From positions 30,618 through 94,617 of the forward strand of contig DXYS01000006.1 in assembly GCA_019415705.1 (NCBI GenBank): a DNA stretch of 64,000 nucleotides, in the 5' to 3' direction. Source of the DNA: Bacteroidales bacterium. Lineage in GTDB: Bacteria > Bacteroidota > Bacteroidia > Bacteroidales > Muribaculaceae. Below the pieces are notes generated by a model that worked only from the letters and a program-made list of their open reading frames with translations, was not told the origin of the DNA and did not search any database. Position numbers and translations under genes: made by a program. Positions 29,666 to 49,469 of the stretch are shown one piece after another (the first letter of the stretch is position 1; every line of letters starts with the position of its first letter).

Positions 29666-29675
29666 GTACGACTAA

Positions 29676-31288: not shown

Positions 31289-34200
31289 ATGAAAACTAAA
31301 ATGTTGGCCGTTGCAGCGGCTATGCTTGTCGGAGCTGCAGCCGCCTCAGCCCAAAATTTCAAGGATGACAAAACGCTCTCCTTTCACGAGCGCGCCAAGC
31401 TGCTCGTCTCGCAGATGACTCTTCAAGAAAAAATAAGCCAGATAGGCAACAACTGCGGCCCCGTCAACCGCTTAGGCATCAAACGCTACAACTACTGGAA
31501 CGAAGGCATACACGGCGTGGCCCGCTCGGGCATCGCCACACAGTTTCCCGTCTCAAAGGCTCTGTCGAGCACATGGGACACCGACCTGATGCTGCGCGTC
31601 GGCACGGCCATCTCCGACGAGGCACGCGTCTATAACAATCGCGATGGCAAAGGCCTGACCTACTGGTGTCCGACCATCAACATGAGCCGTGACCCGCGCT
31701 GGGGCCGCGACGAGGAAAATTACGGCGAGGACCCATACCTGACCGGCACGCTCGCCGTGGCATATATCAAAGGTATGCAGGGCGACCATCCAAAATATCT
31801 CAAGACCGTGGCAACAGCCAAACACTTCGCCGCCAACAACTACGAGCGCGAACGCCACAGCCACTCGTCGGAGCTTGATGACCGCAACCTGCGCGAATAC
31901 TATCTCCCGGCGTTCGAAATGAGCGTCAAAGACGCAAAGGTTGCATCAGTGATGAGCGCCTACAACGCCGTCAACGGCGTGCCCTGCTGCGCCTCGCCCG
32001 AGCTGCTGACTGACATACTGCGCAAAGAATGGGGCTTCAAAGGCTTTGTCACCTCTGACTGCGGCGCCATTCAGGACATCTACGACCCGCATCACTACAC
32101 CTCGTCATTAGAGGAGGCCGCAGCCAAGGCCATACGCGCCGGCGAAGACATGAACTGCGGCGGCGTCTTCCAGAATAACACCATGGGCGCCATCTCGCAG
32201 GGTCTGCTGACCGAGGCCGACGTCGACTCGGCGCTCGTGCGCATCTTCGAGGCACGTTTCGCGCTCGGCGAGTTCGACACAGACAACCCGTGGAGCGGCA
32301 TCAGCCCCTCTATAATCGGCAGCGAGGCTCACAACGCCCTCGCCAAAGAGGCCGCTCTCAAGTCTATCGTACTGCTCAAAAACGCCGCTCCGAGCACCGG
32401 TCAGAAGCCGCTGCTGCCCTTGGACAAGAACAAGAAAGTAGCGCTCATCGGCCCGATGACTAACCTCGTGTCATTAGGCGGTTACTCAGGCTCATGCCCC
32501 GTGTCGACGACTTTGCTGCAGGCCTTTGCTGCGCGTCACGGCGTGACACTCTACGACCCCAACAACCAGTTTGAATATTACGACGAAAAACACGGCAACT
32601 GCAACGCCGAAGCCAACGGCTGCGACGGCAATCTCGGCAACGTGCGTGCCGGCGACTGGGTAATGTATAAAAATGTCGACCTCGGCGAAGGCTGCGACGT
32701 GCTCACCGTGCGCTCGGCCACAGCCAACGGCGCCGACAAGCCGACCGTAATGAAAATCTATATCGACACCAAAGGCGCTGTGCCTGACGCCACGCTGACA
32801 CTGCCCGTCACCGGCTCGTGGGGCAAGTATGTCGAGACCGTTTTTGACGTCGACGCTACACGTTTCAAAGGCGTGCACAACCTCTACTTCGAGTTTACGG
32901 GCGGCAACAGCTACTGCTCGAATATGGACTGGTATCGTTTCGAGAAATATCAGGAACCGACCGAGGCCACGGTCAACTGCGGCGCCTTCACCAAGTCTAA
33001 CGATGGCAGCAAGATGAAGATGGAGAGCGGCGGCAATCTCGGTTATGTCGCTGACGGCGACTGGGCAATGTATGAGGGCATCAACCTCGGCAACGGCTGT
33101 GACCGCCTGACCATCACCTCGGCCTCAGGCAACAAACTCGAGCGCACGACGGTCGAAATCTACCTTGACAAAATCGAGGGCACTCCCCTCGCCCGCATAG
33201 AGTTGCCGGCCACCGACGGCTGGCAAGCATACAAGGACGTGACTCACAATATCGACGAGGCAACCTTCGCCGGACGTCATGACCTCTACCTGAAGTTCTC
33301 GGGCGGTTATATCTACTGCGACAACCTGCTGCGCATGCGCTTCTTCAATTCCAAAACTCCCGCTGAGCCCGTCGAGGACGAGAGCGGCAAGACGCTCTTC
33401 ACCGAGCGCGGCTGCAACATCGTCGACGTGACGGCCACTGACATCGACGCCGTCAAAGCTACAGCCGCCAAAACCGATGTGGTCATCTTCACTGCCGGCA
33501 CTGACCTCAGCGTGATGAACGAGGGGCACGACCGCTCGACCATCGACCTGCCGGGCGACCAGCTCAAGGTGCTCAAAGCCATCGCCGAAGTAAACCCCAA
33601 CATCATCCTGCTGCTGCAGAGCGCATCGTCGCTCAACGTCAGCTGGGCCGAAGCAAATGTGCCCGCCATCCTCGAGGCTTGGTACGGCGGACAGGCTCAG
33701 GGCGAAGCCATAGCCGATGTCATTTACGGCGACTTCAATCCCTCGGGCAAGGTGACTTCGACGTGGTATAATTCAGACTCAGAGCTGCCTGACATCAAAA
33801 ATTACGATATCCGCGCCGGCCACCGCACATATATGTATTACAACAAGACGCCACTCTACGCCTTCGGCCACGGTCTGAGCTACACGACCTTTGATTACGG
33901 CAATCTCTCGCTGAGCGCCAAGACCTTAGGCAAGGACGAGACTATCACTATCAGCTTTGACGTAACCAACAGCGGCGAGCGCGACGGCGCCGAGATAGTC
34001 CAGCTCTACACTCACGCTAACTCGGCCGTCGAGCGTCCCCTCAAAGAGCTCAAGGGATTTGCCCGTGTCGAGCTCAAAGCCGGCGAGACCAAAACGGTGA
34101 ACATGGAGCTGCGCCACAGCGACCTGCGCTGGTACAATCCCGCGACCCACTATTATGAGGTCGAGGACGGCACGGTCGACATAATGATTGGCTCGTCATC

Positions 34201-34417
34201 GTCAGACATCCGCCTGACCGACACTATCACAACCCGCGCCGCTCAGGTGCTCGCCACTTATAAATCAGGTCTGAGCGGTATCGGCTCCGTCGCAGCCGAC
34301 ACCGTCAATGGTAACAAATGCGTCTACCGCATCGACGGTGTCAAGGTCGACTCCGAGCCAGACTCACTCACATCGGGCATCTACATCGTCGACGGCAAAA
34401 AGATACTCAAAAAGTAA
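31289..34417 (+). CDS. GH3 beta-glucosidase/beta-xylosidase with two inserted CBM6-like modules and a T9SS C-terminal domain
   Basis: 1042 aa. GH3 motifs NEGIHGV, SRDPRWGRDEENYGEDP, KHFAANN and GFVTSDCGA are present. Two CBM6-like modules lie at about 32590-33345 (GNVRAGDWVMYKNVDLGEGCD and GYVADGDWAMYEGINLGNGCD). The C-terminus is CVYRIDGVKVDSEPDSLTSGIYIVDGKKILKK. Confidence 0.9.
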   Translation: MKTKMLAVAAAMLVGAAAASAQNFKDDKTLSFHERAKLLVSQMTLQEKISQIGNNCGPVNRLGIKRYNYWNEGIHGVARSGIATQFPVSKALSSTWDTDLMLRVGTAISDEARVYNNRDGKGLTYWCPTINMSRDPRWGRDEENYGEDPYLTGTLAVAYIKGMQGDHPKYLKTVATAKHFAANNYERERHSHSSELDDRNLREYYLPAFEMSVKDAKVASVMSAYNAVNGVPCCASPELLTDILRKEWGFKGFVTSDCGAIQDIYDPHHYTSSLEEAAAKAIRAGEDMNCGGVFQNNTMGAISQGLLTEADVDSALVRIFEARFALGEFDTDNPWSGISPSIIGSEAHNALAKEAALKSIVLLKNAAPSTGQKPLLPLDKNKKVALIGPMTNLVSLGGYSGSCPVSTTLLQAFAARHGVTLYDPNNQFEYYDEKHGNCNAEANGCDGNLGNVRAGDWVMYKNVDLGEGCDVLTVRSATANGADKPTVMKIYIDTKGAVPDATLTLPVTGSWGKYVETVFDVDATRFKGVHNLYFEFTGGNSYCSNMDWYRFEKYQEPTEATVNCGAFTKSNDGSKMKMESGGNLGYVADGDWAMYEGINLGNGCDRLTITSASGNKLERTTVEIYLDKIEGTPLARIELPATDGWQAYKDVTHNIDEATFAGRHDLYLKFSGGYIYCDNLLRMRFFNSKTPAEPVEDESGKTLFTERGCNIVDVTATDIDAVKATAAKTDVVIFTAGTDLSVMNEGHDRSTIDLPGDQLKVLKAIAEVNPNIILLLQSASSLNVSWAEANVPAILEAWYGGQAQGEAIADVIYGDFNPSGKVTSTWYNSDSELPDIKNYDIRAGHRTYMYYNKTPLYAFGHGLSYTTFDYGNLSLSAKTLGKDETITISFDVTNSGERDGAEIVQLYTHANSAVERPLKELKGFARVELKAGETKTVNMELRHSDLRWYNPATHYYEVEDGTVDIMIGSSSSDIRLTDTITTRAAQVLATYKSGLSGIGSVAADTVNGNKCVYRIDGVKVDSEPDSLTSGIYIVDGKKILKK

Positions 34418-34423
34418 ATAATC

Positions 34424-34485
34424 AGGGCCTTAAGATAGCTATCATAGCTAATTTAGCTACCATAGCTACTTTAAGGCCCTTTTTG
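34424..34485 (+). terminator. Terminator whose loop holds 4 tandem 9-nt ATAGCTAnn units
   Basis: Stem agggccttaa (34424-34433) pairs with ttaaggccct (34471-34480), followed by ttttg. The loop at 34435-34470 reads atagctatc atagctaat ttagctacc atagctact. Confidence 0.7.
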
Positions 34486-34518
34486 TACTGTCAGAGGTCT
34501 GATGCACCCGCGGGGGTG

Positions 34519-35751
34519 TCAGGCCTTTTCTGCGTCAAATCCGGCGCTGCGGACGGCTGTGATGACGGCCTCGGGGTCGTGCTCGCCCTCGACGACGGCT
34601 TTGCCGGTCGAGAGATTGACGTCAACCTGCTTGACGCCGTCGACAGCGGCTATGCTTTTGGTGACAGTGGCCTGGCAGTGGGGGCAGTTCATGCCCTTGA
34701 TGTTATATTCTTTTGTCATGGCTGAAACGATGTTAAGTTTATGATGTTTATGTCGTTTTACAAATGTTATAATCAGCAACGTCACAAGGATGACCGAACA
34801 GACTGTCGAAAATATGCTCAGACCGCCGGGTGCGTGGCAGGCGCCGTGTGCCATGCCGGCGGGGCGAAACCACTCGGCGGGCAGCAGATAGTCAATCATA
34901 AGTCCGAAAGCTATCGAGCCGATGACTATCGACGCAAGATAAATCGCAGCCGGACGTCGTCCCATCTCCTTGGAGATGAGGGTAAACGAGGCGAAATTGG
35001 CGGCCGGACCGGCCATCAGAAGCACCAGTCCCGTGCCGGGCGAGAGGCCCTTGAGCATCAGCGACAGCGCGATGGGTATCGAGCCTGTGGCGCATACATA
35101 CATCGGTATGGCCACAATCAGCACCATCAGCATGGTCAGCAGCGGCTTGTCGCCGATGACCGCGAAAAAGTCGGCAGGGACGTAGACCGTAATAAGCGCC
35201 GCTATTAGCAGTCCGGTCACAAGCCAGCCGCCGATGCTCTCGACGAGGTCGATATAGCCGTAACGCAGAGCATCGACACACTTTGTCCAAAAGCTTTTAT
35301 GGCTGACGTCAGCCTGACACTCGTCCTGACATGCCTCGACCTGCGGCATATTTCGCTCCGAGCGGCCGACAGCCACGCCGCCGAAGACGGCAGTGACAAG
35401 CGCCGCGATCGGACGCACAACCGCAAACGCCGGGCCGAGCAGCGACCATGTGGCAGCAATACTGTCGACACCGGTCTGAGGAGTGGCGACAAGAAATGAC
35501 GTGGCCGAGGCACGCGACGCACCGTTACGCCGCATGGCGATGGCCGCGGGCAGTACGCCGCACGAACACAGCGGGAGCGGCACTCCGATGGCCGCTGACT
35601 TGACGACCGAGCGCCAGCCCGTACCCGACAGATGCCGCGCGAAGGTCTGCTGCGGCACAAAGGCATGCATGACACCTGCTATAAGAAAACCCAACAGGAT
35701 GTATGGCGACATCTCGTTGAGCATGAAAAGTAATGAGTCTAAGAGTTCCAT
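34519..35751 (-). CDS. Permease (DUF318/ArsP-type, SO_0444-like Cu/Zn efflux family) fused to a C-terminal heavy-metal-associated (HMA) domain
   Basis: 410 aa and multi-TM with a PLCSCGVLP motif. The C-terminal HMA domain reads YNIKGMNCPHCQATVTKSIAAVDGVKQVDVNL. Confidence 0.75.
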   Translation of the reverse strand: MELLDSLLFMLNEMSPYILLGFLIAGVMHAFVPQQTFARHLSGTGWRSVVKSAAIGVPLPLCSCGVLPAAIAMRRNGASRASATSFLVATPQTGVDSIAATWSLLGPAFAVVRPIAALVTAVFGGVAVGRSERNMPQVEACQDECQADVSHKSFWTKCVDALRYGYIDLVESIGGWLVTGLLIAALITVYVPADFFAVIGDKPLLTMLMVLIVAIPMYVCATGSIPIALSLMLKGLSPGTGLVLLMAGPAANFASFTLISKEMGRRPAAIYLASIVIGSIAFGLMIDYLLPAEWFRPAGMAHGACHAPGGLSIFSTVCSVILVTLLIITFVKRHKHHKLNIVSAMTKEYNIKGMNCPHCQATVTKSIAAVDGVKQVDVNLSTGKAVVEGEHDPEAVITAVRSAGFDAEKA

Positions 35752-35848
35752 ATCTGTTTATAGTATAACCGGCATATTTGCCGCGTATTTCTTTCTCAGT
35801 GCAAAATTATACTATACTTTTTGCAACCCGTTTGCAATTTTTATGTGT

Positions 35849-35856
35849 TACTTTTG
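35849..35856 (+). promoter_or_regulatory. -7 box TACTTTTG for the Fur-family gene
   Basis: TAnnTTTG match 16 nt upstream of ATG 35872, implying a very short leader. Confidence 0.4.
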
Positions 35857-35871
35857 TAGAAAAGAAATGAC

Positions 35872-36306
35872 ATGAATACCGCCGATATCGAAATCATCCT
35901 TACCAACAAGGGCGTGAAGCCTACGGCCAACCGCATCCTTGTCCTTCGCGAGCTGATGAACACGTCACACCCTGTCAGCCTCGCTGATTTGGAGAGCGCC
36001 TTGGGCTTCACCATCGACAAAGCGAGCATCTTCAGAGTGCTTGAGCTCTTCGCTGAAAAAGACGTGGTGCATGTGATTGAGGATGGAAGCCGTTCGCTCA
36101 AATACGAATTATGCCACAGCGGTGACCAACACAGCATCGCCGACCAGCACGTCCACTTTTATTGTGAAAAGTGCCGGGAGACATATTGCTTTGAGACTGT
36201 CACCGTTCCGCTGATTGATATGCCCGAGGGATTTACGGCGCATACCGTCAACTACATGATTAAAGGCATTTGCCCCAAATGCGCTGCAGCATCGTCTGAC
36301 GAATAG
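35872..36306 (+). CDS. Fur-family metalloregulator (Zur/Fur-like)
   Basis: 144 aa. It has the winged-helix N-terminus KPTANRILVLRELM and two CxxC pairs (HFYCEKCRETYC and CPKC). It is divergent from the metal permease. Confidence 0.85.
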   Translation: MNTADIEIILTNKGVKPTANRILVLRELMNTSHPVSLADLESALGFTIDKASIFRVLELFAEKDVVHVIEDGSRSLKYELCHSGDQHSIADQHVHFYCEKCRETYCFETVTVPLIDMPEGFTAHTVNYMIKGICPKCAAASSDE

Positions 36307-36321
36307 ACGCCCGCCCCCGGC

Positions 36322-36810
36322 TCAGTCGCCGCATGAGTCAAGCCCGAGCTGCTCGAAGTCATCGCCATCGGAGCGCTCGGCACATTTGCTTTCGTTTTGC
36401 TTGCGGCGCTCGCGGATGATACGGGCAAAAGATTCGGGCAGACGCACATTATACAAATCATAAGCGCGGTCAAAGAGCGGCGCTATCTCCTCGTCGGTGA
36501 AACCGGCTATGCCACAGCCTATGCGTGTGACGTAAAACGTAGTCTGGTCCCACTCATATGCGAGGTCGATAAACCGGTCGACGTAAGGCTTGATTGTCTC
36601 GACACCACCCTGCATCGTCGGGATGGCGTACGACTGTCCCTGCATGCCTTCGCCCTGACCCATCTTGGCGCCAAAACGCAAAAGGGCGGTGCGGGCGGCT
36701 CCTCCGGCATGATTACCGGCAAGATTGCTGCCGAACACAAACACCTCATCTTTATCAAGATGGGTGATATTCTCCGGAGTATATTTCAGTCCTTCAAAAT
36801 CGTTATCCAT
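36322..36810 (-). CDS. Small conserved protein of unknown function, Rossmann/macro-like motif pattern
   Basis: I preferred ATG 36810 because the track start 36849 is TTG and overlaps the upstream gene. Motifs are VFVFGSNLAGNHAGGAA, GQSYAIPT and TRIGCGIAGF. I recall NCBI naming similar proteins the 'A1S_2505 family phage non-structural protein'. This is recollection only. Confidence 0.4.
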   Translation of the reverse strand: MDNDFEGLKYTPENITHLDKDEVFVFGSNLAGNHAGGAARTALLRFGAKMGQGEGMQGQSYAIPTMQGGVETIKPYVDRFIDLAYEWDQTTFYVTRIGCGIAGFTDEEIAPLFDRAYDLYNVRLPESFARIIRERRKQNESKCAERSDGDDFEQLGLDSCGD

Positions 36811-36811
36811 A

Positions 36812-37387
36812 TCACTTAAGTTTTTTGCCGTCAGCAAAGGCGTTGCCAACCCTCGTACCTAACTCGATATAGCCGTTATGGACGGGGTCGAAAGTAATCA
36901 GGCGCATCTTCTCGACATCGGGCTTGCCGTCAGCCGCGAGATAACGCTCATCGCAAACTATATTGATGATTTCGGCGATGATGTAGCAGCCTGTCTCCGA
37001 CTCATCAAGCTTGGTCTTGATGCGGCACTCCATCGTCATGGGGAAACAGCTGTAAACCGGCGCGTTGACGTGCTCGCCCTTGGTAGGCGTCCAGCCCGTG
37101 GCGTCCATTTTGTGAGGAGTGTTGCGTGCGCTGACTATGCCGACGTAATCGGCTGCAGGGAGAGTGTCGACCGTAGCGAAAGCCACAGTGAACTCATCGC
37201 AACGCTTGAGATTTTCGGTCGTGGCGTGAGCGCCCATCGAGATAAAAATCTCCTTATAGTCCCATTGTCCGCCCCACGCGGCGTTCATCGCGTTAGGCGT
37301 GCCGTCAGCGTTATATGTACCGATAATCAAAACCGGCTGCGGAAGCATCCACGCCTTTGATTCAAAATTTTTCATATCAGAGATCAT
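36812..37387 (-). CDS. Flavin reductase family protein (flavoredoxin-like)
   Basis: 191 aa. PQPVLIIGTYNADGTPNAMNAAWGG is typical of flavin reductase-like FMN-binding domains. Its stop lies 1 nt from the next ATG. Confidence 0.85.
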   Translation of the reverse strand: MISDMKNFESKAWMLPQPVLIIGTYNADGTPNAMNAAWGGQWDYKEIFISMGAHATTENLKRCDEFTVAFATVDTLPAADYVGIVSARNTPHKMDATGWTPTKGEHVNAPVYSCFPMTMECRIKTKLDESETGCYIIAEIINIVCDERYLAADGKPDVEKMRLITFDPVHNGYIELGTRVGNAFADGKKLK

Positions 37388-37462
37388 AAGTTGGATTAAT
37401 CAGTACAAATATAACACTCCGCGTACGCAAAAACAAACACCGGCAATACCTTTTGACAATTA

Positions 37463-38242
37463 TTACGACTTGCCATGAGTCATTCGTTTATAAAATCGAT
37501 TGACAACGTCCTGCATTTCGACCGGGAGGTAGGTGATGGCAGTGGCGGCAATGTCGTCGGGGATGCCGAAACGCGACTCGGCGAGTGAGCCGACGATTGC
37601 GCCGACGGTGTCGGTGTCGCCGCCATATACCACAGCGAGGCGCACGGCGTCTTCAAAACTCTCGGCAATTGACGCGATATAAAGCGCTAATGGCACACAG
37701 CCCTGACAGGTAACATCGAAAAAGCCCCGCTCAGGCAGCCTGTCAAATGCCCCGTCGCCATAAAATTCGCGGGCAACGTCATCAAATATTGCGGCGTCCT
37801 TGACTCCGGCCATACGCATGCGGAATATAGCCACAGCTATGGCGACAGCACCTTTTATCCCCTCGGGGTGATTGTGTGTGATGGCCGCCGACAGCTCGGC
37901 CTGCTCGCGGACATCGGCCTCCGTGTCAAAGAGCCATGCCACAGGACTGACTCGCATGGCCGAGCCGTTGCCGAAGCTGTTGTACGGATAGGGGTCAGGG
38001 CGCATTACCCAATTGAAGAAGTAGCTGCCGTATTCGCCCATGGGATGAGGGTACTTGTGACACCATGCTCGCATCGAAGTCATGTAGTCAACGTCTTTCA
38101 GTAACGCATCGGCTACGGCGACGGTACAGATGGTGTCGTCTGTAAAACCGTTTTCGGCGCCAAACATCTCAAAATCATAGTCAGACGTGTTGTCAAATTC
38201 ATATCGGCTCCCGGCGATATCGCCTATAATCGCTCCTAACAT
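37463..38242 (-). CDS. ADP-ribosylglycohydrolase family protein
   Basis: 259 aa. The N-terminus MLGAIIGDIAGSRYEF, plus FTDDT, GNGSAMR and GGDTDTVGAIVGSLAE, are ARH/DraG-family signatures. Confidence 0.9.
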   Translation of the reverse strand: MLGAIIGDIAGSRYEFDNTSDYDFEMFGAENGFTDDTICTVAVADALLKDVDYMTSMRAWCHKYPHPMGEYGSYFFNWVMRPDPYPYNSFGNGSAMRVSPVAWLFDTEADVREQAELSAAITHNHPEGIKGAVAIAVAIFRMRMAGVKDAAIFDDVAREFYGDGAFDRLPERGFFDVTCQGCVPLALYIASIAESFEDAVRLAVVYGGDTDTVGAIVGSLAESRFGIPDDIAATAITYLPVEMQDVVNRFYKRMTHGKS

Positions 38243-38365
38243 ATTCGGTTGTTTTTATAAAATTGATACATTCCAAAATATAGTCAATCACTCTGTGCAA
38301 CTGACTGATTATATTGACTTATCGTATTGAATTTCGTCACACTTTATATTATAACAGTCCGCTAA

Positions 38366-39388
38366 TTATTTGTGATAACGGCCGGCGGCACGGCTGACGC
38401 TTTCGGCTACCTTGGCGCGGAACTCGGGCGGAGCGATGACTTCGGCGTGGCCGCCGTAGCCGAGAATAAGCCGCTCAAGCTCGTTGTTGATGACAACTTT
38501 CAGCGACAGCTGTATGCTGCCGTCACTGAATCGCTGCTCTACTTTCTGAGATTTATGAAAAGGCTTTGACTCGACATACGGAGCTTGGTCACGGTCAATC
38601 TTAATAACTATGCGCCGTGCTTTGTCCCTGATTTGTTTCGTCACCCCTATCGTATCGTCAAAAAAGTGCTCCGGGTCAAAATCTACACATTTTCTGAACG
38701 GATGCGTTTTATCAGGCACAACCGAGTGTATGCGGTCAAGAGCGAAGATATTGACCTGCGGCGTGCGGTTTGTCACCTTTTCGCAAATCAGAAACCAGCG
38801 GTTGCGATACTCCTTTAATAAATAAGGATAGACCGTCAGCGCCTCGGGATGTCGGGCCTTAAACGACTGATACTCTATCACGATGGTTTGTTGCTTTCTT
38901 ACCGCGTCATATATTGCACCTATAAACTGCGCGCCGCGATAGCCCGCGACAGTCTCCATATCAATGGCCGGCACAGATGAGCCGGTCTGCCGCGAGATAT
39001 GCTCGTTGAGCTTGCTGATGATGTCGATTGACGACGACAGCTGCGGGAACATCTGCAACTGACGCAGGATATCGAGCGCCGAGTTGAGCGCCTCCAGCCC
39101 CTCGTCATTGAGCGGAAGATGCGTTATGCTGTAGTCCGGATCATCATATTCATAATACTTGTTGTCACGCACCACAATCGGCGCGTTATAGCCAAGTCTG
39201 TCACTGCGCATCAACGCCAGATCATTCTGAAACGTGCGACGGCTGACGGGATTACTGCGGCCTTCGTACTCGGCAAGCGCATCGGTGCACGCATCGATAA
39301 GGTCGTTGATTGTCCAGCGGCGATAATGATTCTGCAGGCAGCGGTCGATGGTCGAGATGCGTATCAGTGTGGCACGGTTGAGAGGCAT
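38366..39388 (-). CDS. WYL-domain transcriptional regulator (N-terminal HTH, central WYL, C-terminal WCX-like)
   Basis: 340 aa. It has an HTH-like N-terminus, and the WYL domain core reads LTVYPYLLKEYRNRWFLI. It is divergently transcribed from rtcB. Confidence 0.8.
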   Translation of the reverse strand: MPLNRATLIRISTIDRCLQNHYRRWTINDLIDACTDALAEYEGRSNPVSRRTFQNDLALMRSDRLGYNAPIVVRDNKYYEYDDPDYSITHLPLNDEGLEALNSALDILRQLQMFPQLSSSIDIISKLNEHISRQTGSSVPAIDMETVAGYRGAQFIGAIYDAVRKQQTIVIEYQSFKARHPEALTVYPYLLKEYRNRWFLICEKVTNRTPQVNIFALDRIHSVVPDKTHPFRKCVDFDPEHFFDDTIGVTKQIRDKARRIVIKIDRDQAPYVESKPFHKSQKVEQRFSDGSIQLSLKVVINNELERLILGYGGHAEVIAPPEFRAKVAESVSRAAGRYHK

Positions 39389-39428
39389 AATGGAATTTTT
39401 TTTGCTAAAATAATCATTTTTATTTCAC

Positions 39429-39447
39429 TGCGCAAATATATTGCGCA
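39429..39447. promoter_or_regulatory. Candidate operator palindrome TGCGCAA-N5-TTGCGCA in the WYL/rtcB divergent promoter
   Basis: 7-bp perfect inverted arms at 39429-39435 and 39441-39447, ending 10 nt upstream of the rtcB -7 box. Confidence 0.4.
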
Positions 39448-39456
39448 CTATCCTCC

Positions 39457-39464
39457 CAACTTTG
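39457..39464 (+). promoter_or_regulatory. -7 box CAACTTTG for rtcB
   Basis: nAnnTTTG match 19 nt upstream of ATG 39483. It lies inside the TTG-started ORF extension, which argues for 39483 as the true start. Confidence 0.45.
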
Positions 39465-39482
39465 CAGCATAAATTCAAGAAT

Positions 39483-41273
39483 ATGATAATCAAAGGGAAA
39501 ACCACCACCGCTGAAATATTTACAGCGAATATCGAGGAGTCTGCGCTCGAATGGGCCAAAGAGCTTTGCGACCATCCGTGCATGCAGGGCGTCCCCGTCG
39601 TCCAGATGCCTGACGTGCACGCAGGACGTGGCTGCAATGTCGGCACGGCCTATCCGGTCAGACAGTTTGTCAATCCCGACCATGTCGGTGTCGACATAGG
39701 CTGCACGATTTCGATGCATAAACTTTCGGCGCCCGTCTGTCCTGACGACTATGCACTACTTGACCACCGTATTCGTGAGACTGTGCCAACCGGTAACAGA
39801 GTCTGCGACAAGAACTCATTAAACGAAAAGGAGTTCATGGCGTTTATAAATTCACGCTATCAGAGTGCACGCTCGGTCGCACCCGATCTCATCAACGAAG
39901 AGCGCATCGACGGGCGCTTTATCAGTGATTTCTGCCGGCGTGTCAAAATTCAGGAGGGTGTATTCTATAAAAGTCTCGGCACACTCGGCGGAGGGAACCA
40001 TTTCATCGAATACGGAGTAGCCGAAAAGTCAGACGAGGCTTGGCTGACAATACACTGCGGCTCTCGGAACCTCGGAGTCAAAGTCGCCTCTTACTGGCAC
40101 AATATCGCCGCTAATCCGCGCCATGGCGCATATGCCGGATATCTGTGTGACGACGCCTTACGCGGTTATATCTCGGATATGGTCATCGCTCAGGCCTACG
40201 CCATGTATAACCATTATGTCATCCGCGACCGCATATTTGTCATCCTCAAGAAATTGTGCAACGCCAAATGCTCCGAGTCGATATTCACCACTCACAATTA
40301 CATCTCTTTCGACGGAGTGCAGCCCATGCTTCGCAAAGGTGCTGTCGATGCCTCCGAAGGACGAAAGTTAGTCATCCCATTCAATATGCGCGACGGCATC
40401 GCCATATGTGTCGGACGCGGCAACCGGGAGTGGCTCAACACCGCTCCCCACGGCGCAGGCCGAGTCATGAGCCGTGCGCAGGCACGCAAACAGATTGACA
40501 TGCAGGACTTCGAGCAGACGATGTCGGGCATTTTCTCTACATCAGTCTGTGAAGGCACGATTGACGAAGCGCCTATGGCTTATAAACCGACCGATGAAAT
40601 CCTCGAAATGATAAGACCGACCGTCGATGTCGTGGCTATGGTCAGACCGAGAATAAACATTAAAGACAATGGAAGATTACGGCCAGATAACAGCCGGTCG
40701 CGGCCCCGTGGAATGTGCGCGTGCCGTGACACTCGTCGCCCGCAAATTACTCAAAGAAATCCCGGACTCAAACTCGTTGAAAGCGAGCCTCACAATCAGG
40801 CTGCCGACTGCTATATGTCGCTGACATTCGCTGCCGACGAGGCCATTGACAACAGCTTTAAAGATAACTGGCAGGGCACGGTGCTCTGGCGTTCGACCAA
40901 TAATCCGTATCGCCCGGACTACAAACGCAGCAACTGGTTTGTCGGAGTAAACTTCATCGATGAAGTCGAGCTGCCCCAGATCAATGAGGCCGATATAGTC
41001 TATGAGACCTGTCGCTCAGGCGGCAATGGCGGACAGAATGTCAATAAGGTCGAGAGTTCGGTCAGAGCCATCCACACACCGACCGGTATCACGGTCAGAT
41101 GCTCTGACGAACGCTCGCAAGCTCAGAACAAGGCCCGTGCACGCGAGCGTCTGATGCTTAAACTTCGCGCCATCAATGATTCAGCCATAGCCGATGCCCG
41201 CGTCAGACAGTGGAGCAACCATGACTCGCTCGTAAGAGGCGCGCCGGTAAAAAAATTCAGCGGACCGCTATAA
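39483..41273 (+). CDS. rtcB: RtcB-family RNA 3'-phosphate ligase (about aa 1-395) that, as sequenced, has no stop and continues in frame into the GGQ domain of PrfH
   Basis: RtcB motifs MPDVHAGRG, GGGNHFIEYG, HCGSRNLG and TAPHGAGR are present. RtcB homology ends at ...VRPRINIKD (40667). The same frame then runs to the stop at 41271-41273. Confidence 0.85.
   Translation: MIIKGKTTTAEIFTANIEESALEWAKELCDHPCMQGVPVVQMPDVHAGRGCNVGTAYPVRQFVNPDHVGVDIGCTISMHKLSAPVCPDDYALLDHRIRETVPTGNRVCDKNSLNEKEFMAFINSRYQSARSVAPDLINEERIDGRFISDFCRRVKIQEGVFYKSLGTLGGGNHFIEYGVAEKSDEAWLTIHCGSRNLGVKVASYWHNIAANPRHGAYAGYLCDDALRGYISDMVIAQAYAMYNHYVIRDRIFVILKKLCNAKCSESIFTTHNYISFDGVQPMLRKGAVDASEGRKLVIPFNMRDGIAICVGRGNREWLNTAPHGAGRVMSRAQARKQIDMQDFEQTMSGIFSTSVCEGTIDEAPMAYKPTDEILEMIRPTVDVVAMVRPRINIKDNGRLRPDNSRSRPRGMCACRDTRRPQITQRNPGLKLVESEPHNQAADCYMSLTFAADEAIDNSFKDNWQGTVLWRSTNNPYRPDYKRSNWFVGVNFIDEVELPQINEADIVYETCRSGGNGGQNVNKVESSVRAIHTPTGITVRCSDERSQAQNKARARERLMLKLRAINDSAIADARVRQWSNHDSLVRGAPVKKFSGPL
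40669..41273 (+). pseudogene. prfH: Peptide chain release factor H-like gene split over two frames (frameshifted, mis-sequenced or recoded)
   Basis: ATG 40669 in the +1 frame gives MEDYGQITAGRGPVECARAVTLVARKLLKEIPD, and that frame stops at 40822-40824. From about 40764 the PrfH homology is in the rtcB frame: WQGTVLWRSTNNPYRPDYKRSNWFVGV and SGGNGGQNVNKVESSVRAIHTPTGITVRCSDERSQAQNKA. Confidence 0.75.
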
Positions 41274-41312
41274 CTTCCCAAACATGTACCTGTAAACGGT
41301 ACACCTTACACA

Positions 41313-41320
41313 TAACTTTG
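41313..41320 (+). promoter_or_regulatory. -7 box TAACTTTG for the AAA+ gene
   Basis: Exact TAnnTTTG match 29 nt upstream of ATG 41349. Confidence 0.45.
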
Positions 41321-41348
41321 CCATCGCAAGCTAAAAAACACATCAACT

Positions 41349-43055
41349 ATGAGAGGATTTGAATTTCTTAAAGCAGAAAAGCCCGACTCGGCAGACAAAA
41401 CAAAGCAGAAAGACGCGGCCCGCAACGCCCGGCCGAAGAGTATTCTCGAATCTTTTGAATATATAGTCGAATTGGCCGAGAAATCAAATTTAGACAAGGA
41501 CTTCTTCGATAAGGCGGCCACGCACATCAGATATGCCGGGCGCAAACTTAAGCTCACTCCCATGCAGGTCGTATTGCTCTCGATGTTTGTCGACCGTAGC
41601 GAGGACAGCCGCATCATGATTTCGGAAATTGCCGCTTACACCGGTTGCCGCACGACCAAGCTGCTGCGTCTGTCAGATGACATCGACGTACTCGAGGCCA
41701 AGCATTATATCCGTGCGGCCCGCGGGCGCAAGTCACTGAGCTATCGTGTGCCTTCAGATGTACTGAAAGCCCTTCGCAAAGGGGAGCCATACGTCTACAC
41801 CGAGGAGCCCGTTGCCGACACAGAGACTTTCTTCGACAGATTTGACTGTCTGATGGACGAGATGGATGACGACGAATTGACACATGACATCCTGATGCAT
41901 CGCACAAACGAGATGCTCGAAGAAATTCGTCATACGGCATTTGCCACCGGTTTGCGACGCTACAACCTTGACTCTGAACATAAGCTGATTTTTATCTATA
42001 TGGCCCATCTGTTCGTCGAGAACGATGACAACAATATCGTATTCAGCGACATCGAAAATATCTATGACGATGACGAGATACCCGGCTGGCAAAAGCGCAG
42101 TCTGCGAAATCACGAGTCTGAACTATTTACAAAAGAGCTTATCGAAAATGTCAACGAAGACGGCATGGCGCGCTCTGATGCGTTCAAACTCACCAATAAA
42201 GCAAAGGACGAACTCCTCGGCGAGCTCAAACTCAATTCTCTCGGCAAGTCAGACCGCGGACTGATTAAGGCGTCGTCACTTGCCGCCAAAAAGCTGATTT
42301 ACAACTCTGCCGAGGAGAAAGAGATTGGCGAGCTTGCATCAATTCTTTCGGCCAAGCGTTTTGACGAAGTGCAGACCCGTTTGCGTGCAGCCGGCATGCG
42401 CCCCGGATTCTGCTGCATATTTTATGGAGCGCCCGGCACCGGCAAGACCGAAACTGTCTATCAGCTCGCACGTCAGACCGGCCGCGATATAATGCGTGTT
42501 GACGTCGATAAAATCAAAAGCTGCTGGGTCGGCGAAAGCGAGAAAAACATCAAGGCGCTTTTTGACCGCTACCGCAGCATCTGCAAAAACTCGACGCTTG
42601 CGCCGATTCTGCTCTTCAACGAGGCCGATGCCGTGCTCGGTGTCAGAATGGAAGGCGCATCAAGCGCTGTCGACAAAATGGAGAACTCTATCCAGAACAT
42701 CATCCTGCAGGAGATGGAGTCACTCGAGGGCATAATGATTGCGACGACTAACCTCACGACAAATCTCGACAAAGCCTTCGAACGCCGTTTCATTTACAAA
42801 ATCCGTTTTGACAAGCCGACCGTCGGGCCGCGTGCCAAAATCTGGCAGAGCATGCTCAACGGGCTGTCAGACAAAGATGCCGAGACGCTTGCCTCGCAGT
42901 TTGACCTCTCGGGCGGCGAGATTGAGAACATCGCACGCAAACACTCTGTCAACGCCATTCTTTCAGGAAATGAGGATATAAACCTCGACGAGATTATCGC
43001 ATCGTGCCGCCATGAACGCCTTGACAATTCACCTCGCGCCAAAATCGGATTCTGA
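41349..43055 (+). CDS. AAA+ ATPase (classical CDC48/FtsH-type AAA module) with N-terminal winged-helix-like region
   Basis: 568 aa. It has Walker A GAPGTGKT, Walker B ILLFNEADA and the SRH region ATTNLTTNLDKAFERRF. The N-terminal part ISEIAAYTGCRTTKLLRLSDDIDVLEAKHYI looks wHTH-like. Confidence 0.85.
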   Translation: MRGFEFLKAEKPDSADKTKQKDAARNARPKSILESFEYIVELAEKSNLDKDFFDKAATHIRYAGRKLKLTPMQVVLLSMFVDRSEDSRIMISEIAAYTGCRTTKLLRLSDDIDVLEAKHYIRAARGRKSLSYRVPSDVLKALRKGEPYVYTEEPVADTETFFDRFDCLMDEMDDDELTHDILMHRTNEMLEEIRHTAFATGLRRYNLDSEHKLIFIYMAHLFVENDDNNIVFSDIENIYDDDEIPGWQKRSLRNHESELFTKELIENVNEDGMARSDAFKLTNKAKDELLGELKLNSLGKSDRGLIKASSLAAKKLIYNSAEEKEIGELASILSAKRFDEVQTRLRAAGMRPGFCCIFYGAPGTGKTETVYQLARQTGRDIMRVDVDKIKSCWVGESEKNIKALFDRYRSICKNSTLAPILLFNEADAVLGVRMEGASSAVDKMENSIQNIILQEMESLEGIMIATTNLTTNLDKAFERRFIYKIRFDKPTVGPRAKIWQSMLNGLSDKDAETLASQFDLSGGEIENIARKHSVNAILSGNEDINLDEIIASCRHERLDNSPRAKIGF

Positions 43056-43090
43056 GCGCCGGCGGCAGACAGTTAATCTATTATAAAACT

Positions 43091-43143
43091 GCGTTCACTA
43101 TTAAATATGCGCCCTCGTCGGGCGTTATTTTAATAGTAAACGC
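43091..43143 (+). terminator. Nested hairpin after the AAA+ gene
   Basis: Outer 15-bp stem with one mismatch: gcgttcactattaaa (43091-43105) pairs with tttaatagtaaacgc (43129-43143). Inner stem cgccc/gggcg at 43110-43124. Confidence 0.45.
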
Positions 43144-43172
43144 ATAATTATATTTAAAACACACGTAAACCT

Positions 43173-43688
43173 ATGATTAGAAAGCTTATAGTAATTATTG
43201 CATTGTTTTTTGGTGTAATTTCGGCCTCAGCAGCCCTTCCCATCGACAAATACAGCATCAACCGCAAGGATTTACCCGAGGAGGCACAGCAGATGCTCGA
43301 CGAGCACTTCCCCAAAGCAAAAGTCAGCATGGTGAAAGTAGACCGCCATCTCCTCAAAAAAACAGACTACGACGTCAAACTCACCAACGGCACCAAAATC
43401 GAATTCAGCAACAAAGGCCGCTGGACCAGCGTAGACTGCAAGAAAAAGTCCGTGCCGGAATCGCTTGTGCCGAAAGCCATTCGCAATAACGTCGCAAAAA
43501 AATACTCCGATGATAAAATCGTAAAGATAAGCCGTTCGTCACTCTACTACATCATCGGACTCGCAAACGGCAAGGAACTGAAATATGACCGCCTCGGCAT
43601 ATTCCAAGGCGAAGTGACCAAAAAAGAAGCCGAAGATTTCGAGGCCGAAGCCCTCTCCGAAGCCGACAGCACCGACAGCGAGCAGTAA
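43173..43688 (+). CDS. Secreted PepSY-like (DUF2874-type) small protein
   Basis: 171 aa with a signal peptide. The repeated beta-hairpin pattern YDVKLTNGTKIEFSNKGRW and YIIGLANGKELKYDRLG is present. It is paralogous to 49600-50043. Confidence 0.65.
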   Translation: MIRKLIVIIALFFGVISASAALPIDKYSINRKDLPEEAQQMLDEHFPKAKVSMVKVDRHLLKKTDYDVKLTNGTKIEFSNKGRWTSVDCKKKSVPESLVPKAIRNNVAKKYSDDKIVKISRSSLYYIIGLANGKELKYDRLGIFQGEVTKKEAEDFEAEALSEADSTDSEQ

Positions 43689-43712
43689 ATAGCTTTTACA
43701 TCTAACGGTGAT

Positions 43713-43760
43713 AAAAAGGAGGATGTTGTAAGACGTTGCTCGCAACATCCTCCTTTTTAC
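43713..43760. terminator. Bidirectional terminator between convergent genes
   Basis: Stem aaaaggaggatgttg pairs with caacatcctcctttt, with A/T tracts on both sides. Confidence 0.8.
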
Positions 43761-43781
43761 GGCGTTTTCATAGTTTAGCAA

Positions 43782-44603
43782 TCAATACGCATCGCGTACA
43801 TCTTTATAAGAGGCATATACTTCTGACATCTCGGGGTCATCACACTCGTCACACAGTTTGTCAAACATAGCGCGGCAAGCATGCGAACTGCGCGCGAAGA
43901 CAGAAGCTTTTACAAGTTGGCTTGTTTTACGGCCCGTGTGGAACGGCACGCAAACGCCATCGGTAATTGCCGACAATTCGACAAACCACGGATCACCGGT
44001 TATCGTAACCGTGTCGATTGCGATTTCCATCTCAGCGGCTTTAAGAGCCTCGGCACGCCAGTCTATCCGGTTATTGATCACATAGTCCTTGTAATTATAA
44101 CCCAATTCGTGAGGCACGGCATCGGCAATAAGCAGTATTGACCGCGTCGAGCCTTCGCGCCAAGGCGTTTCTTCAACAATCTTCTTGATTACAAGCTCAT
44201 AAAACTCCGGTCCGTCACCGCCTGAGGTGTCGTGTGAGTTGAGTACGAATTTTATAAGTTCATTCTCATTGTCAGTCGGCGCGATACACTGGTAGGCATC
44301 TCCGAACTCCTGAGCATTATTCATGTCACAGTAGTCGCCGAAAGCGACTATGCCGAGGCGTAAATCATCATTGTCTTTAAAAAGCTGAGGAATAAGTTCT
44401 GACACCTCTTTGCGCACCGTTCCGATATATCGCGCCATTGAGCCGGTGGTATCAAAAGCAATCACCATGTCGAGTTTGCCTATGTTTTTAGGGGCTTTAT
44501 AAGAGCAAAACTCACTGTCGTCGACAACCGGTGAATCAAATCCGTCAGGAATAACCGTTTTCTCAAGGTCTGCTTTTTCTTTCTTTTTTGTTAAAAATCC
44601 CAT
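43782..44603 (-). CDS. Cytoplasmic von Willebrand factor A (vWA/MIDAS) domain protein
   Basis: 273 aa with no signal peptide. The MIDAS-like motif is VIAFDTTGSM, followed by GIVAFGDY and TSGGDGPE. Confidence 0.8.
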   Translation of the reverse strand: MGFLTKKKEKADLEKTVIPDGFDSPVVDDSEFCSYKAPKNIGKLDMVIAFDTTGSMARYIGTVRKEVSELIPQLFKDNDDLRLGIVAFGDYCDMNNAQEFGDAYQCIAPTDNENELIKFVLNSHDTSGGDGPEFYELVIKKIVEETPWREGSTRSILLIADAVPHELGYNYKDYVINNRIDWRAEALKAAEMEIAIDTVTITGDPWFVELSAITDGVCVPFHTGRKTSQLVKASVFARSSHACRAMFDKLCDECDDPEMSEVYASYKDVRDAY

Positions 44604-44841
44604 TGTGGTTTTGAATTAGTGATATTAATCGAAAAACTATGTCTGTCAATGTGACAAGGACAACTCTATATACCAGAATCGACTTCGATGTAAACAATGG
44701 ACTTGTGTTTTTTTCGCAAAAATACGTCTCACTAATCCATTATATGCCAATAATTACTCCCCGATGTACCAACCTGTCTTAAAAATGTATGAATTATAAT
44801 AACGGCACGAGAAAACGAACTGAATATATAGCAATTAAAGA

Positions 44842-44892
44842 TTACCCGAGCATCTCGTTTGTGACAATTCATCAAACGGGGTGCTCGGGTAA
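44842..44892. terminator. Long hairpin downstream of the hydrolase remnant
   Basis: ttacccgagca (44842-44852) pairs with tgctcgggtaa (44882-44892), with an inner cgtttg/caaacg pair. Confidence 0.5.
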
Positions 44893-44953
44893 AATTTGTT
44901 TTCTTATATATTTGTTGTTTCGGTCTACTTTCAGGAGATGGCCTTACCATCTG

Positions 44954-45715
44954 TCAAATGCCGAAAAGGAACGCAAGCGGCTCGGAAACCTGCATCTTGT
45001 CAGCTGCATCGCCGGCATAGATTTCGCCTCCGGTCAGCGTGAGTTTTCTGACCTTTTCGCCGGCATTAAAATCAAGCTTTTTTAAATCTATCCAGAAAAT
45101 ATCAGGACTCAATGTCGACTCAAAATAATATACCCGATGTTTCTGATCTGCCACAGTACGCCATCGTGTAGAGGCTATGTTGGGCTGTGACGGGATTGAA
45201 ATACCGAGCGGCACTGATACATTACGCATCACACTGAACACTCCGGCCACAGCCTGACGATAATCAGATGTCTTAGGGAGCGCTTTAATGTAAAATGATG
45301 CTCTCACGAAGCGGTCTGACGCACGGTTTGTACCCGGCAGCATGACAAGACCACCTATCTGGTCCCAATAATCATCTAACGTCTGCTGCTTGTCGTAGGA
45401 TGGAGAATTTGTCATCACCTGACAGTCTCGGCCATGATGAATCACGAGACTGCCGTTTATATACTCAAATATCGCACTGTTGCCAGTCGGATCGGAAATT
45501 GAAAGATGAAGGGTCGATTTAGCACCGTTCGGCAAATCGGGGTCATCGATACGGAATAATTCCTTACCGAGTTCCTCCACGGCTTCATCTACAGTGGCAA
45601 AATTGTCAAGCACATATTGGGTCCAGATGCTCAGACCCATTACAGGACGTTTATCATCAGGTCTGTGATAATCTGATTCGGCCAGAAAAAGCAGATTGGC
45701 AACGAGACCTTGTTT
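44954..45715 (-). pseudogene. 5'-truncated choloylglycine hydrolase / linear amide C-N hydrolase (Ntn) family gene remnant
   Basis: Homology starts at ..KQGLVANLLFLAESDY and runs to the C-terminus (TLHLSISDPTGNSAIFEYI, VMTNSPSYDKQ, DRFVRASFYI, TRWRTVAD). About 100 N-terminal residues, including the catalytic Cys, are absent. The apparent N-terminus MFCLYFF lies inside the ssrA terminator. Confidence 0.7.
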
Positions 45716-45732
45716 ATCGGAATCCGCGGACG

Positions 45733-45775
45733 CAAAAAAATAAAGGCAAAACATTCGAAAAAATGTTCTGCCTTT
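45733..45775 (-). terminator. Rho-independent terminator of ssrA
   Basis: On the minus strand: AAAGGCAGAACATT, loop TTTTCG, AATGTTTTGCCTTT, then ATTTTTTTG. Confidence 0.7.
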
Positions 45776-45836
45776 ATGCTCTTGTGCGTTTATTTGTGCA
45801 CAATTTACACAAATGCTTGATTCTCAAGCGCAATTG

Positions 45837-46234
45837 TGGAGTTGGGGGGACTTGAACCCCCGTCCAAACGCGGAACTAATGAGCTTTCTACGTGCGTAGT
45901 CGCTACTTGGTTTTCGTGCTCCGGCAGGCGAACGACGACCAACCGGGGCCTTATCCTCTAAAATTTCGGAGTCTTCGCGAGGCTCTCTGACTCCTATTCC
46001 CGATTTACCAGCACCGCCGTATCGATCCGTCTCGGAAAAAGGACAATCGGGCGATGTCTTGTCTCTGCAACTGTTGCGGAGATTAAGCTTAATTTACTGT
46101 ACTTCGATTAAGCAGCAAGAGCGTAGTTATTTTCGCCAATTAAAATTGCTGATGTCTCTGATTAAAGAGCGTAGCCATCATTGCTCTGCACGCTTACACA
46201 CCACCTCTACACGCTGTCAAAACCGGTCAACCCC
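45837..46234 (-). ncRNA. ssrA: tmRNA (transfer-messenger RNA)
   Basis: Minus-strand 5' end is GGGGTTGACCGGTTTTGACAG. The 3' end is GGACGGGGGTTCAAGTCCCCCCAACTCCA, and the acceptor stem has a G3:U pair. The tag ORF GGC GAA AAT AAC TAC GCT CTT GCT GCT TAA (46137-46108) encodes GENNYALAA. Confidence 0.95.
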
Positions 46235-49367: not shown

Positions 49368-49444
49368 TGGTGACTCATACAGGATTCAAACCTGTAACCT
49401 TCTGATCCGTAGTCAGATGCTCTATTCAGTTGAGCTAATGAGCC
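49368..49444 (-). tRNA. tRNA-Arg (anticodon ACG), CCA encoded
   Basis: The reverse complement folds as a cloverleaf: acceptor GGCTCAT/ATGAGTC, anticodon arm TCTGA-CTACGGA-TCAGA, T arm ACAGG-TTTGAAT-CCTGT, then ACCA. Confidence 0.95.
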
Positions 49445-49469
49445 AATTGCTATCTTGCGATTGCGAGTG

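Follow-up and report, generated by a model that had tools for sequence, protein, structure and literature searches.

RtcB2-PrfH pairs rescue and repair ribosomes, a function that has been established with the proteins of Escherichia coli and Capnocytophaga gingivalis (PMC9304027, PMC9223846, PMC12829566). The accessory genes of the pair were described by Burroughs and Aravind (2019) as encoding TPR, Pol-beta nucleotidyltransferase (NTase), ZnR, and charged helical proteins; WYL and AAA+ proteins were not among them. A tailed PrfH subfamily is found mainly in Flavobacteriia (PMC12829566). For the ADP-ribosylglycohydrolases (ARH or ARG), Iyer, Burroughs, Anand, de Souza, and Aravind (2022; PMC9503650, section 3.8) predicted ARG-centric systems with WYL or Nudix regulators, phosphatases (calcineurin-like included), vWA chaperones, and rapid cassette displacement, and WYL and CARF factors regulate RNA-repair pathways according to the same source (PMC9503650). 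The locus described here combines genes of both kinds. It lies in a 64-kb stretch (64,000 nt, hereafter the window) of contig DXYS01000006.1 from a Bacteroidales bacterium, in which the gene of a WYL regulator (WYL-A) is divergent from rtcB-prfH, an AAA+ ATPase gene follows prfH, and an ARH gene lies on the other side of WYL-A. With somewhat better than even confidence, the region is read here as a set of small counter-conflict cassettes under separate promoters, which together form a mosaic within a variable island of a Muribaculaceae-type genome, the whole being degraded in this strain.

The open reading frames (ORFs) and domains named in an earlier note on this DNA were confirmed at their places using the ORF list and Pfam, and the ten proteins spanning 35872-45754 were scanned with Pfam. 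Comparisons were made with approximately 170 related loci (labelled L001 and so on), which included 80 genome loci of the AAA+ gene from across Bacteroidales and 80 metagenomic loci of the ARH gene. The homologues of the AAA+ protein carried the source names Muribaculaceae or Duncaniella, and the species-level relative in GTDB was L011, an uncultured Bacteroidales metagenome-assembled genome.

WYL-A (38366-39388, minus strand; 340 aa) has the predicted layout HTH-WYL-WCX. Pfam matched its WYL domain (PF13280, 43.5 bits with a cut-off of 21.8) and its WCX domain (PF25583, 62 bits with a cut-off of 23.9); no Pfam HTH match was obtained for the N-terminus, and the PADLOC WYL profile PDLC01457 aligned to residues 10-322. 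The divergent spacer between WYL-A and rtcB measures 94 nt (39389-39482), as had been noted before, and it belongs to a conserved unit with an invariant palindromic operator. This A-type operator, TGCGCAAATATATTGCGCA (TGCGCA-N7-TGCGCA; 39429-39447, both strands), stands 41 nt away from the start codon of WYL-A and 35 nt ahead of the rtcB ATG in the window (approximately 41 nt and 34-35 nt across the loci), and a Bacteroidetes-type -7 box of the rtcB promoter, CAACTTTG (39457-39464), follows 9 nt past it. The motif was found at the same distance in L001, L003, L011, L012, L014, L015, L019, L022, L230, and L232. In relatives, orthologues of WYL-A (E approximately 1e-190 to 1e-227) were transcribed away from either rtcB-prfH or the AAA+ gene, and every prfH locus examined that had enough flank carried WYL-A divergent from rtcB (399 codons) and prfH (201 codons), namely L001, L003-L006, L011, L012, L014, L018, L019, L022, L230/L231, and L232. 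The A motif was present within 250 nt upstream of 8 of 10 WYL-A genes and, in several genomes, 43-46 nt upstream of the gene for a second RtcB paralogue (417-418 aa). In the 64-kb window it occurs once, and no A-type operator was found there upstream of the ARH or the AAA+ gene. When up to one mismatch was allowed, neither this motif nor the B-type motif described below had a match in 540 kb of unrelated ARH control loci.

As judged from sequence, WYL-A/rtcB-prfH is a conserved divergent regulated unit, and good comparative evidence points to WYL-A as a dedicated rtcB regulator that would be functionally parallel to RtcR of Enterobacteria. The likeness to RtcR-rtcBA consists in a ligand-sensing one-component regulator divergent from an RtcB repair operon, so that the regulatory logic would be analogous; the difference is that in place of a CARF-AAA+ sigma-54 activator there is a predicted HTH-WYL-WCX protein, whose palindromic operator belongs to a promoter of the Bacteroidetes type, and that rtcA is missing. 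The WYL regulators BrxR, CapW, PafBC, and DriD are similar in their HTH-WYL-WCX layout, their divergence from the controlled operon, and the palindrome in the shared promoter region, but their operator sequences differ and the candidate targets here are rtcB-prfH, AAA+, ARH, and phosphoesterase genes. A WYL-A dimer most likely binds the TGCGCA-N7-TGCGCA palindrome directly upstream of the rtcB -7 box, and because of the position of this site we infer repression by promoter occlusion: WYL-A would repress the rtcB promoter and its own until a damage-derived ligand (RNA fragments or cyclic-phosphate ends) releases it. By analogy with E. coli RtcB2-PrfH, on ribosomes whose 16S rRNA has been cut, RtcB and PrfH would then release the peptide and seal the rRNA again.

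The AAA+ gene (41349-43055, plus strand; 568 aa; PF00004, 79.7 bits) starts 75 nt after prfH. The wHTH-like N-terminus that the earlier note had ascribed to its product was borne out, and in the structural model it comprises two tandem MarR/ArsR-like winged helix-turn-helix (wHTH) units (residues 30-290, approximately), which are followed by a classical-clade AAA domain (residues 345-560, approximately). The AlphaFold (AF2) model had a predicted local distance difference test (pLDDT) score of 85. Foldseek matched the AAA domain to Rpt, p97, Vps4, Msp1, and FtsH, with a probability of 1.0 for the first four, and a model of the N-terminus alone to SarS, MarR, and ArsR, with weak E-values and high probabilities. 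An invariant GPPGTGKT-type P-loop and a WVGESEK pore-loop region place the domain in the classical clade. The family is large (1886 representatives at E<1e-30), and full-length matches had 36-51% identity. Its best-scoring named family is IetA/IteA of the IetAS (Ietis) system, likewise a classical-clade AAA, but the scores (110 bits with PADLOC and 99 bits with NCBIfam, whose cut-off is 510 bits) are far below that cut-off, and the N-terminus with two wHTH units is family-specific here. In the 80 loci, the AAA+ gene had neither an IetS protease gene nor any recurrent partner adjacent to it. A phage origin of the family was considered and rejected, as viral contigs matched the AAA domain only, without the N-terminal region.

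A different operator stands in the AAA+ gene's own promoter region. This B-type operator, TGTACCTGTAAACGGTACA (TGTAYC-N7-GRTACA; 41285-41303, both strands), is followed 9 nt further on by the -7 box TAACTTTG (41313-41320). It was found 40-70 nt upstream of the AAA+ start in all loci in which the AAA+ identity was at least approximately 60% (L011-L027, L029), and the sequence TAAyTTTG (TAnnTTTG) came after it whether or not prfH preceded. There is no terminator between prfH and the AAA+ gene, so that read-through from rtcB-prfH into the AAA+ gene is possible. In relatives the B motif is associated with WYL-B, a second WYL paralogue of approximately 300 aa that begins MNQLQKYTWLI and is not encoded in the window. 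The motif lies between WYL-B and a calcineurin-like phosphoesterase (Metallophos) gene in L011 and 38-56 nt upstream of WYL-B in operons of WYL-B, ARH, and an exonuclease; overall, the WYL-B genes had a B motif upstream in 10 of 17 cases and an A motif in none of the 17. The AAA+ gene would thus constitute a separate cassette, encoding an unfoldase-type AAA protein and equipped with its own promoter and a B palindrome that travels with WYL-B in relatives.

Within 8 kb of the AAA+ gene, a WYL gene was present in 33 of the 80 loci, RtcB in 14, and prfH in 7, and the remaining neighbours were mostly unique or of defence type (DUF262-like, PLD-like, PDDEXK-like, MoxR plus vWA). In L013, L016, and L017, WYL-A is directly beside the AAA+ gene with both the A and the B motif kept in tandem, and some loci carry rtcB-prfH without the AAA+ gene; because of these arrangements, the space between the two promoters may or may not contain rtcB-prfH, which in this respect behaves as a cassette. 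In L003-L006 (AAA+ identity 75%), the WYL-A/rtcB-prfH-AAA+ block is located in an apparent conjugative transposon (RteC, topoisomerase, DUF3945/DUF4099, HTH_17), where it adjoins another WYL gene, a PDDEXK_4 nuclease gene, and an ABC-type ATPase gene; since it is inside such an element, the block is taken to be horizontally mobile. A further recurrent guild member was observed in L091, L093, and L096, where a DprA/SLOG-like gene (116 aa; Pfam DNA_processg_A, YAcAr) is divergent from the gene of the 418-aa RtcB and has a B-type operator nearby.

On the other side of WYL-A, the ARH gene (37463-38242, minus strand; 259 aa; PF03747, 121 bits), whose product has DraG and ARH3 as relatives in PDB, was found to be a strain-variable cassette. 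It is followed by a gene for a flavin-reductase-like protein (36812-37387, minus strand; 191 aa; PF01613, Flavin_Reduct, 39.3 bits) and by a small gene whose product the earlier note had called Rossmann/macro-like. That product belongs instead to the A1S_2505 family (NCBIfam NF049995, 'phage non-structural protein' family; 139 bits with a cut-off of 45). It had no Pfam match, and its only match among PDB sequences, to a macrodomain, was not significant (E = 0.14). The A1S_2505 gene occupies 36322-36810 (minus strand; 162 aa from the ATG at 36810); a longer listed ORF with a TTG start reaches 36849, which gives a range of 162-175 aa, and the gene calls in L007, L008, and L009 are of 162 aa.

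L011 is collinear with the window over 34565-37472 (A1S_2505 and flavin reductase genes) and over 38395-43677 (WYL-A to PepSY). The slot between these blocks holds WYL-B and the Metallophos gene in L011 (2.1 kb) and the ARH gene in the window (0.9 kb), and L001 has WYL-B and Metallophos at the ARH position as L011 does. No ARH gene was found in any of the 80 AAA+ loci. Because L011 differs and the ARH gene is missing from these loci, its adjacency to WYL-A is a strain-level feature, and the earlier view that it forms part of the module was not supported. The ARH gene has other companions elsewhere. WYL-B is immediately upstream and an RNase_T-type exonuclease gene downstream in 8 of the 80 ARH loci (72-76% identity), most of which also have the second RtcB within 1-4 kb, and in 54 of the 80 (55-60% identity) a gene with an A1S_2505 domain is upstream, with variable cassettes between. 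The flavin reductase gene accompanied ARH in 2 of the 80 ARH loci only and is syntenic with the A1S_2505 gene in L011. In L112, two unrelated genes take the place of the 5' part of WYL-A, rtcB-prfH, and the AAA+ gene, and the ARH-flavin reductase-A1S_2505 run is kept. ARH is, as far as these neighbourhoods indicate, not a random passenger; it would be an exchangeable cassette put behind WYL-A by recombination in this lineage, and the flavin reductase and A1S_2505 genes would be older syntenic neighbours. In gut metagenome contigs (L103-L170), the slot between the ARH and A1S_2505 genes held Kinase-PolyVal, DUF3990, PAD_porph-like, small vWA, and 71-aa paired genes, and the A1S_2505-domain protein was often fused to a sigma-70 region-4-like N-terminus. 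This hypervariable slot has the appearance of a hot spot of exchange, as is typical of mobile elements.

The ARH side resembles the ARG-centric systems in having a stand-alone ARH next to a WYL gene (WYL-A is 123 nt upstream in the window), a calcineurin-like phosphoesterase as the alternative cassette in a sister genome, and rapid cassette exchange between close relatives. A vWA protein is also encoded nearby, but at a distance of 5.5 kb from ARH, and the two are not conserved together; the small vWA that recurs in distant ARH loci is a different one. The ARG-centric systems differ in that they were described in actinobacteria, planctomycetes, and proteobacteria, whereas the setting here is Bacteroidales, and in that a phosphatase is coupled in approximately 55% of them, whereas none is beside ARH in the window. 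ARH is linked here to RtcB genes and to A1S_2505-family genes, and no ART (ADP-ribosyltransferase) or sirtuin domain was found by Pfam among the ten proteins scanned.

The rtcB-prfH part is damaged in the window. In relatives, RtcB (399 aa) and PrfH (201 aa) are encoded by separate genes with a 4-nt ATGA overlap, and the pair resembles RtcB2-PrfH of E. coli ATCC25922 and C. gingivalis (CgPrfH) in that rtcB is directly upstream and co-oriented and that GGQ is present. The earlier note had listed rtcB and prfH as two genes; both domains are at the place it named, but they share one ORF of 596 codons (39483-41273, plus strand) in which prfH is frameshifted. Pfam matched RtcB (200.9 bits; residues 38-394, profile positions 14-425 of 426) and RF-1 (84.7 bits; residues 495-566) in this single ORF. 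L001 has 95% DNA identity over window positions 38395-43677 (the range for L001 and L011 is 95-96%), and its alignment with the window located the losses. At the overlap of the rtcB stop and prfH start, 7 nt (GAAAGAA in L001) are missing after 40677 (40677-40678, plus strand), and the rtcB TGA stop is gone; 85 nt beyond this deletion, 1 nt is missing from a run of C (C3 at 40761-40763, plus strand; C4 in relatives), which frameshifts prfH. The fused ORF reads RtcB to approximately 40677, then approximately 29 out-of-frame codons, and then PrfH residues 33-201 (approximately), so that GGQ is in the rtcB frame. PrfH residues 1-32 are out of frame in the window, and the allele therefore does not encode an intact stand-alone PrfH. 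A 51-codon remnant of the prfH 5' end (40669-40824, plus strand), which begins MEDYGQITAGRGPVECARAV and ends at a premature TGA, was recognized by its translation: its N-terminus, which includes ITAGRGPVEC, matches the conserved PrfH start ITAGRGPxEC in L001 and in CgPrfH (9mor). The lost N-terminus is conserved as far as the solved structure of CgPrfH.

The sister alleles are canonical in other respects. PrfH of L001 passed TIGR03072 (177 bits with a cut-off of 166.65), and the sister PrfH matched CgPrfH 9mor at E = 5e-39 and aligned over its full length with 9mor and with E. coli PrfH (EcPrfH) 7sa4. The homologues of PrfH were 200-211 aa long, nearly all of them 201 aa (120 among the matches listed), and stand-alone. 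RtcB scored 91 bits with TIGR03073, the PrfH-linked subfamily, which has a cut-off of 271.8, and its link to prfH is one of context, seen in at least 12 loci. On these sequence comparisons, the lineage is a member of the RtcB-PrfH group and the window allele is predicted to be defective. Besides the frameshift and fusion, the differences from the described pairs are that PrfH here is of the short 201-aa type despite the Bacteroidota host, and that the pair comes with the gene of a divergent WYL regulator and often with an AAA+ gene.

The same 596-aa ORF was called in the independent assembly L009. The C3 run is present in three assemblies, the window, L009, and L010 (L009 and L010 being of essentially the same strain), and because it recurs in L009 and L010 the frameshift is regarded as real and not as a one-off error. 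L009 also has the 7-nt deletion, and over 18 kb it shows only two mismatches to the window, both beside the deletion. The contigs of L007 and L008, which are 100% identical to the left side of the window, end at 40677 and 40675, and L010, from the same sample as one of these two, begins with canonical ATGAAAGAATACATCC. The junction at 40669-40685 was a hot spot of variation among otherwise identical strains, with three forms: L007 and L010 are intact-like where their contigs end, and the 7-nt deletion comes with TACATCCAG in L009 and with TACGGCCAG in the window. Contigs from two assemblers break exactly at the rtcB/prfH junction. This variability could be due to a mixed population or to local instability at the ATGGAAG/ATGAAAG quasi-repeat. 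We read the sequence of the junction as that of a decaying locus with co-existing alleles; in this strain, prfH is frameshifted and, in this allele, fused to rtcB, and the window holds no WYL-B.

An ORF that stays open and recurs in two assemblies otherwise without differences, with the RtcB and RF-1 (GGQ) domains in one frame, might also be taken as a functional RtcB-PrfH fusion, that is, a newly evolved single-chain rescue-and-repair enzyme. We consider this very unlikely. The linker of such an enzyme would be an out-of-frame reading of prfH codons 1-32, the ITAGRGPxEC segment that is otherwise conserved to CgPrfH has been lost, the 120 homologues among the matches listed stand alone at approximately 201 aa, and, within this strain cluster, one sister allele has the frameshift but apparently retains the stop codon. 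The prfB gene, a paralogue of prfH, uses programmed +1 frameshifting. With that precedent, and with a shift site within a short C run, prfH could be thought to be decoded by programmed ribosomal frameshifting and to be functionally intact. The shift required here, however, is -1, at ATC CCG GAC, where no X XXY YYZ heptamer is found, and all relatives have an uninterrupted 201-codon ORF with C4; programmed frameshifting was rejected for the missing slippery heptamer and the plain C4 ORF of the relatives, and is given next to no credence.

The wider organization of the region was weighed in the same manner. The earlier note proposed that a single WYL regulator co-controls rtcB-prfH-AAA+ on one side and ARH-flavin reductase-A1S_2505 on the other, so that RNase and ADP-ribosyltransferase toxins could be countered together. 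ARH is indeed co-directional with and directly downstream of WYL-A in the window and in L112, it follows WYL-B in 8 loci of which most have a second RtcB within 1-4 kb, the WYL-A promoter faces the AAA+ gene directly in L013, L016, and L017, and WYL-regulated ARG systems have been predicted (Iyer et al. 2022, PMC9503650). An integrated module of this kind nevertheless appears unlikely: the closest relatives lack ARH beside WYL-A, ARH is found in 0 of 80 AAA+ loci, the single A site in 64 kb leaves none upstream of ARH or the AAA+ gene, a terminator-like hairpin with a T-rich tail (38282-38306, minus strand; consensus scan) stands between the WYL-A stop and the ARH start, and rtcB-prfH occurs without the AAA+ gene. 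One regulator driving both sides is also at odds with the distinct operator and promoter of the AAA+ gene, which elsewhere is tied to WYL-B. The opposite view, that the genes are adjacent by chance in a recombination hot spot and, beyond the rtcB-prfH pair, have no functional relation, draws on flanks that vary between near-identical relatives, on AAA+ neighbours that are mostly unique or generic defence genes, and on vWA and PepSY genes that are not conserved partners. It is held to be rather improbable, given that WYL (33/80) and RtcB (14/80) occur within 8 kb of the AAA+ gene, that the same two operators are reused across cassettes and are absent from control DNA, and that the partner of ARH goes with the identity class, being WYL-B in one and A1S_2505 genes in another. 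The neighbourhood analysis thus upheld the linkage proposed earlier in part: WYL, RtcB, PrfH, AAA+, and ARH recur together in other Bacteroidales islands far above chance, but the ARH adjacency is not kept and the AAA+ gene mostly occurs without rtcB-prfH. A more ambitious arrangement, which we regard as speculative and improbable, would be a two-regulator response of Muribaculaceae and related Bacteroidales to translation damage, in which WYL-A controls rtcB genes and prfH, WYL-B controls AAA+, phosphoesterase, and ARH-exonuclease operons, and the AAA+ protein, a bacterial Cdc48 counterpart beside a release-factor-like hydrolase, has damaged ribosomes or ADP-ribosylated targets as its substrates. 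If true, such a response would be an SOS-like regulon for RNA and ADP-ribose damage.

Several points weigh against the mosaic of separately promoted cassettes that is preferred here. The pairing of motif A with WYL-A and of motif B with WYL-B is one of co-location only in the sequences compared; the AAA+ protein, through its tandem wHTH domains, is an alternative candidate for binding motif B, which in many AAA+ loci is present with no WYL-B gene within 8 kb. ARH recurs near WYL-B and the second RtcB in other genomes, and the removal of ADP-ribose may be functionally tied to RNA repair. Nearly identical assemblies differ at the rtcB/prfH junction, part of whose signal could be population heterogeneity or an assembly artefact, and the fused ORF might still give active RtcB. 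Finally, the Bacteroidetes promoters were called by eye using the TAnnTTTG rule, with no validated tool. On the mosaic reading, the gene families form a recurring guild whose arrangement in this strain is rearranged and degraded.

Downstream of the AAA+ gene, a G+C-rich hairpin with a T tail (43109-43125) is terminator-like on both strands. It is followed by a gene for a PepSY-like protein with a hydrophobic, signal-peptide-like N-terminus (43173-43688, plus strand; PF11396, 92 bits), which lies between the AAA+ and vWA genes and had gone unmentioned before. Among the compared loci it was found only in L001, L011, and L112, and it is probably unrelated to the block and co-inherited in near relatives only. 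The vWA-domain protein (43782-44603, minus strand; 273 aa) gave a weak Pfam VWA match of 26.3 bits and is a strain-specific neighbour: it had no homologue at E<1e-5 in 160 related loci, and its gene is missing in L001 and L011, which have a PBP gene at that place. The spacings reported earlier, 0.7 kb to the vWA gene and 1.2 kb further to ssrA, were correct. The ssrA gene, encoding transfer-messenger RNA (tmRNA), is a housekeeping neighbour (45834-46234, minus strand; ARAGORN and Rfam RF00023, 143.6 bits). An island targeted to ssrA was rejected, as no direct repeat of the tmRNA 3' end was found in the window. A choloylglycine-hydrolase (CBAH) fragment (44954-45754, minus strand) adjoins the ssrA 3' end; its ORF covers profile positions 73-313 of 316 only, and the gene is probably truncated, the N-terminal part that holds the catalytic nucleophile appearing to be lost. 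Rfam identified the tmRNA and one tRNA only over the window, with no riboswitch or leader. A sigma-70 promoter scan, based on a model ill-suited to Bacteroidetes, returned no more sites than in shuffled sequence.

Further structural variation was seen at a distance from the block. At 31032-31231, L007, which is 100% identical to window positions 28366-40677, has approximately 147 bp (31058-31205) inverted. This segment is bordered by inverted repeats of approximately 27 bp, is located between an ORF at 29729-31006 (minus strand) and a GH3 gene at 31289-34417 (plus strand), and resembles the invertible promoters of Bacteroidales (phase variation). A unit of approximately 79 bp with tRNA-Arg(ACG) is tandemly duplicated in L010 (8702-8865) and present as a single copy in the window (49370-49448).

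The earlier note knew of no description of this combination. WYL-regulated ARG systems and WYL-controlled RNA repair had in fact been predicted (PMC9503650), but the exact setting appears to be new, that is, the Bacteroidales context, the two defined operators, and the link to the AAA+ family with two wHTH units. For annotation, the 596-aa 'RtcB/RF-1' protein would have to be treated as a frameshift product and not as a new domain fusion. The natural broken prfH allele and the intact sister alleles at 95-100% identity provide a ready genetic comparison, and for abundant gut Bacteroidales the conserved WYL-A and its exact operator make up a regulator-operator pair that can be tested directly. 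The B operator, common to a large family of AAA+ genes of the two-wHTH type, to phosphoesterase cassettes, and to ARH operons, hints at a small regulon, which could link RNA repair with the removal of ADP-ribose.

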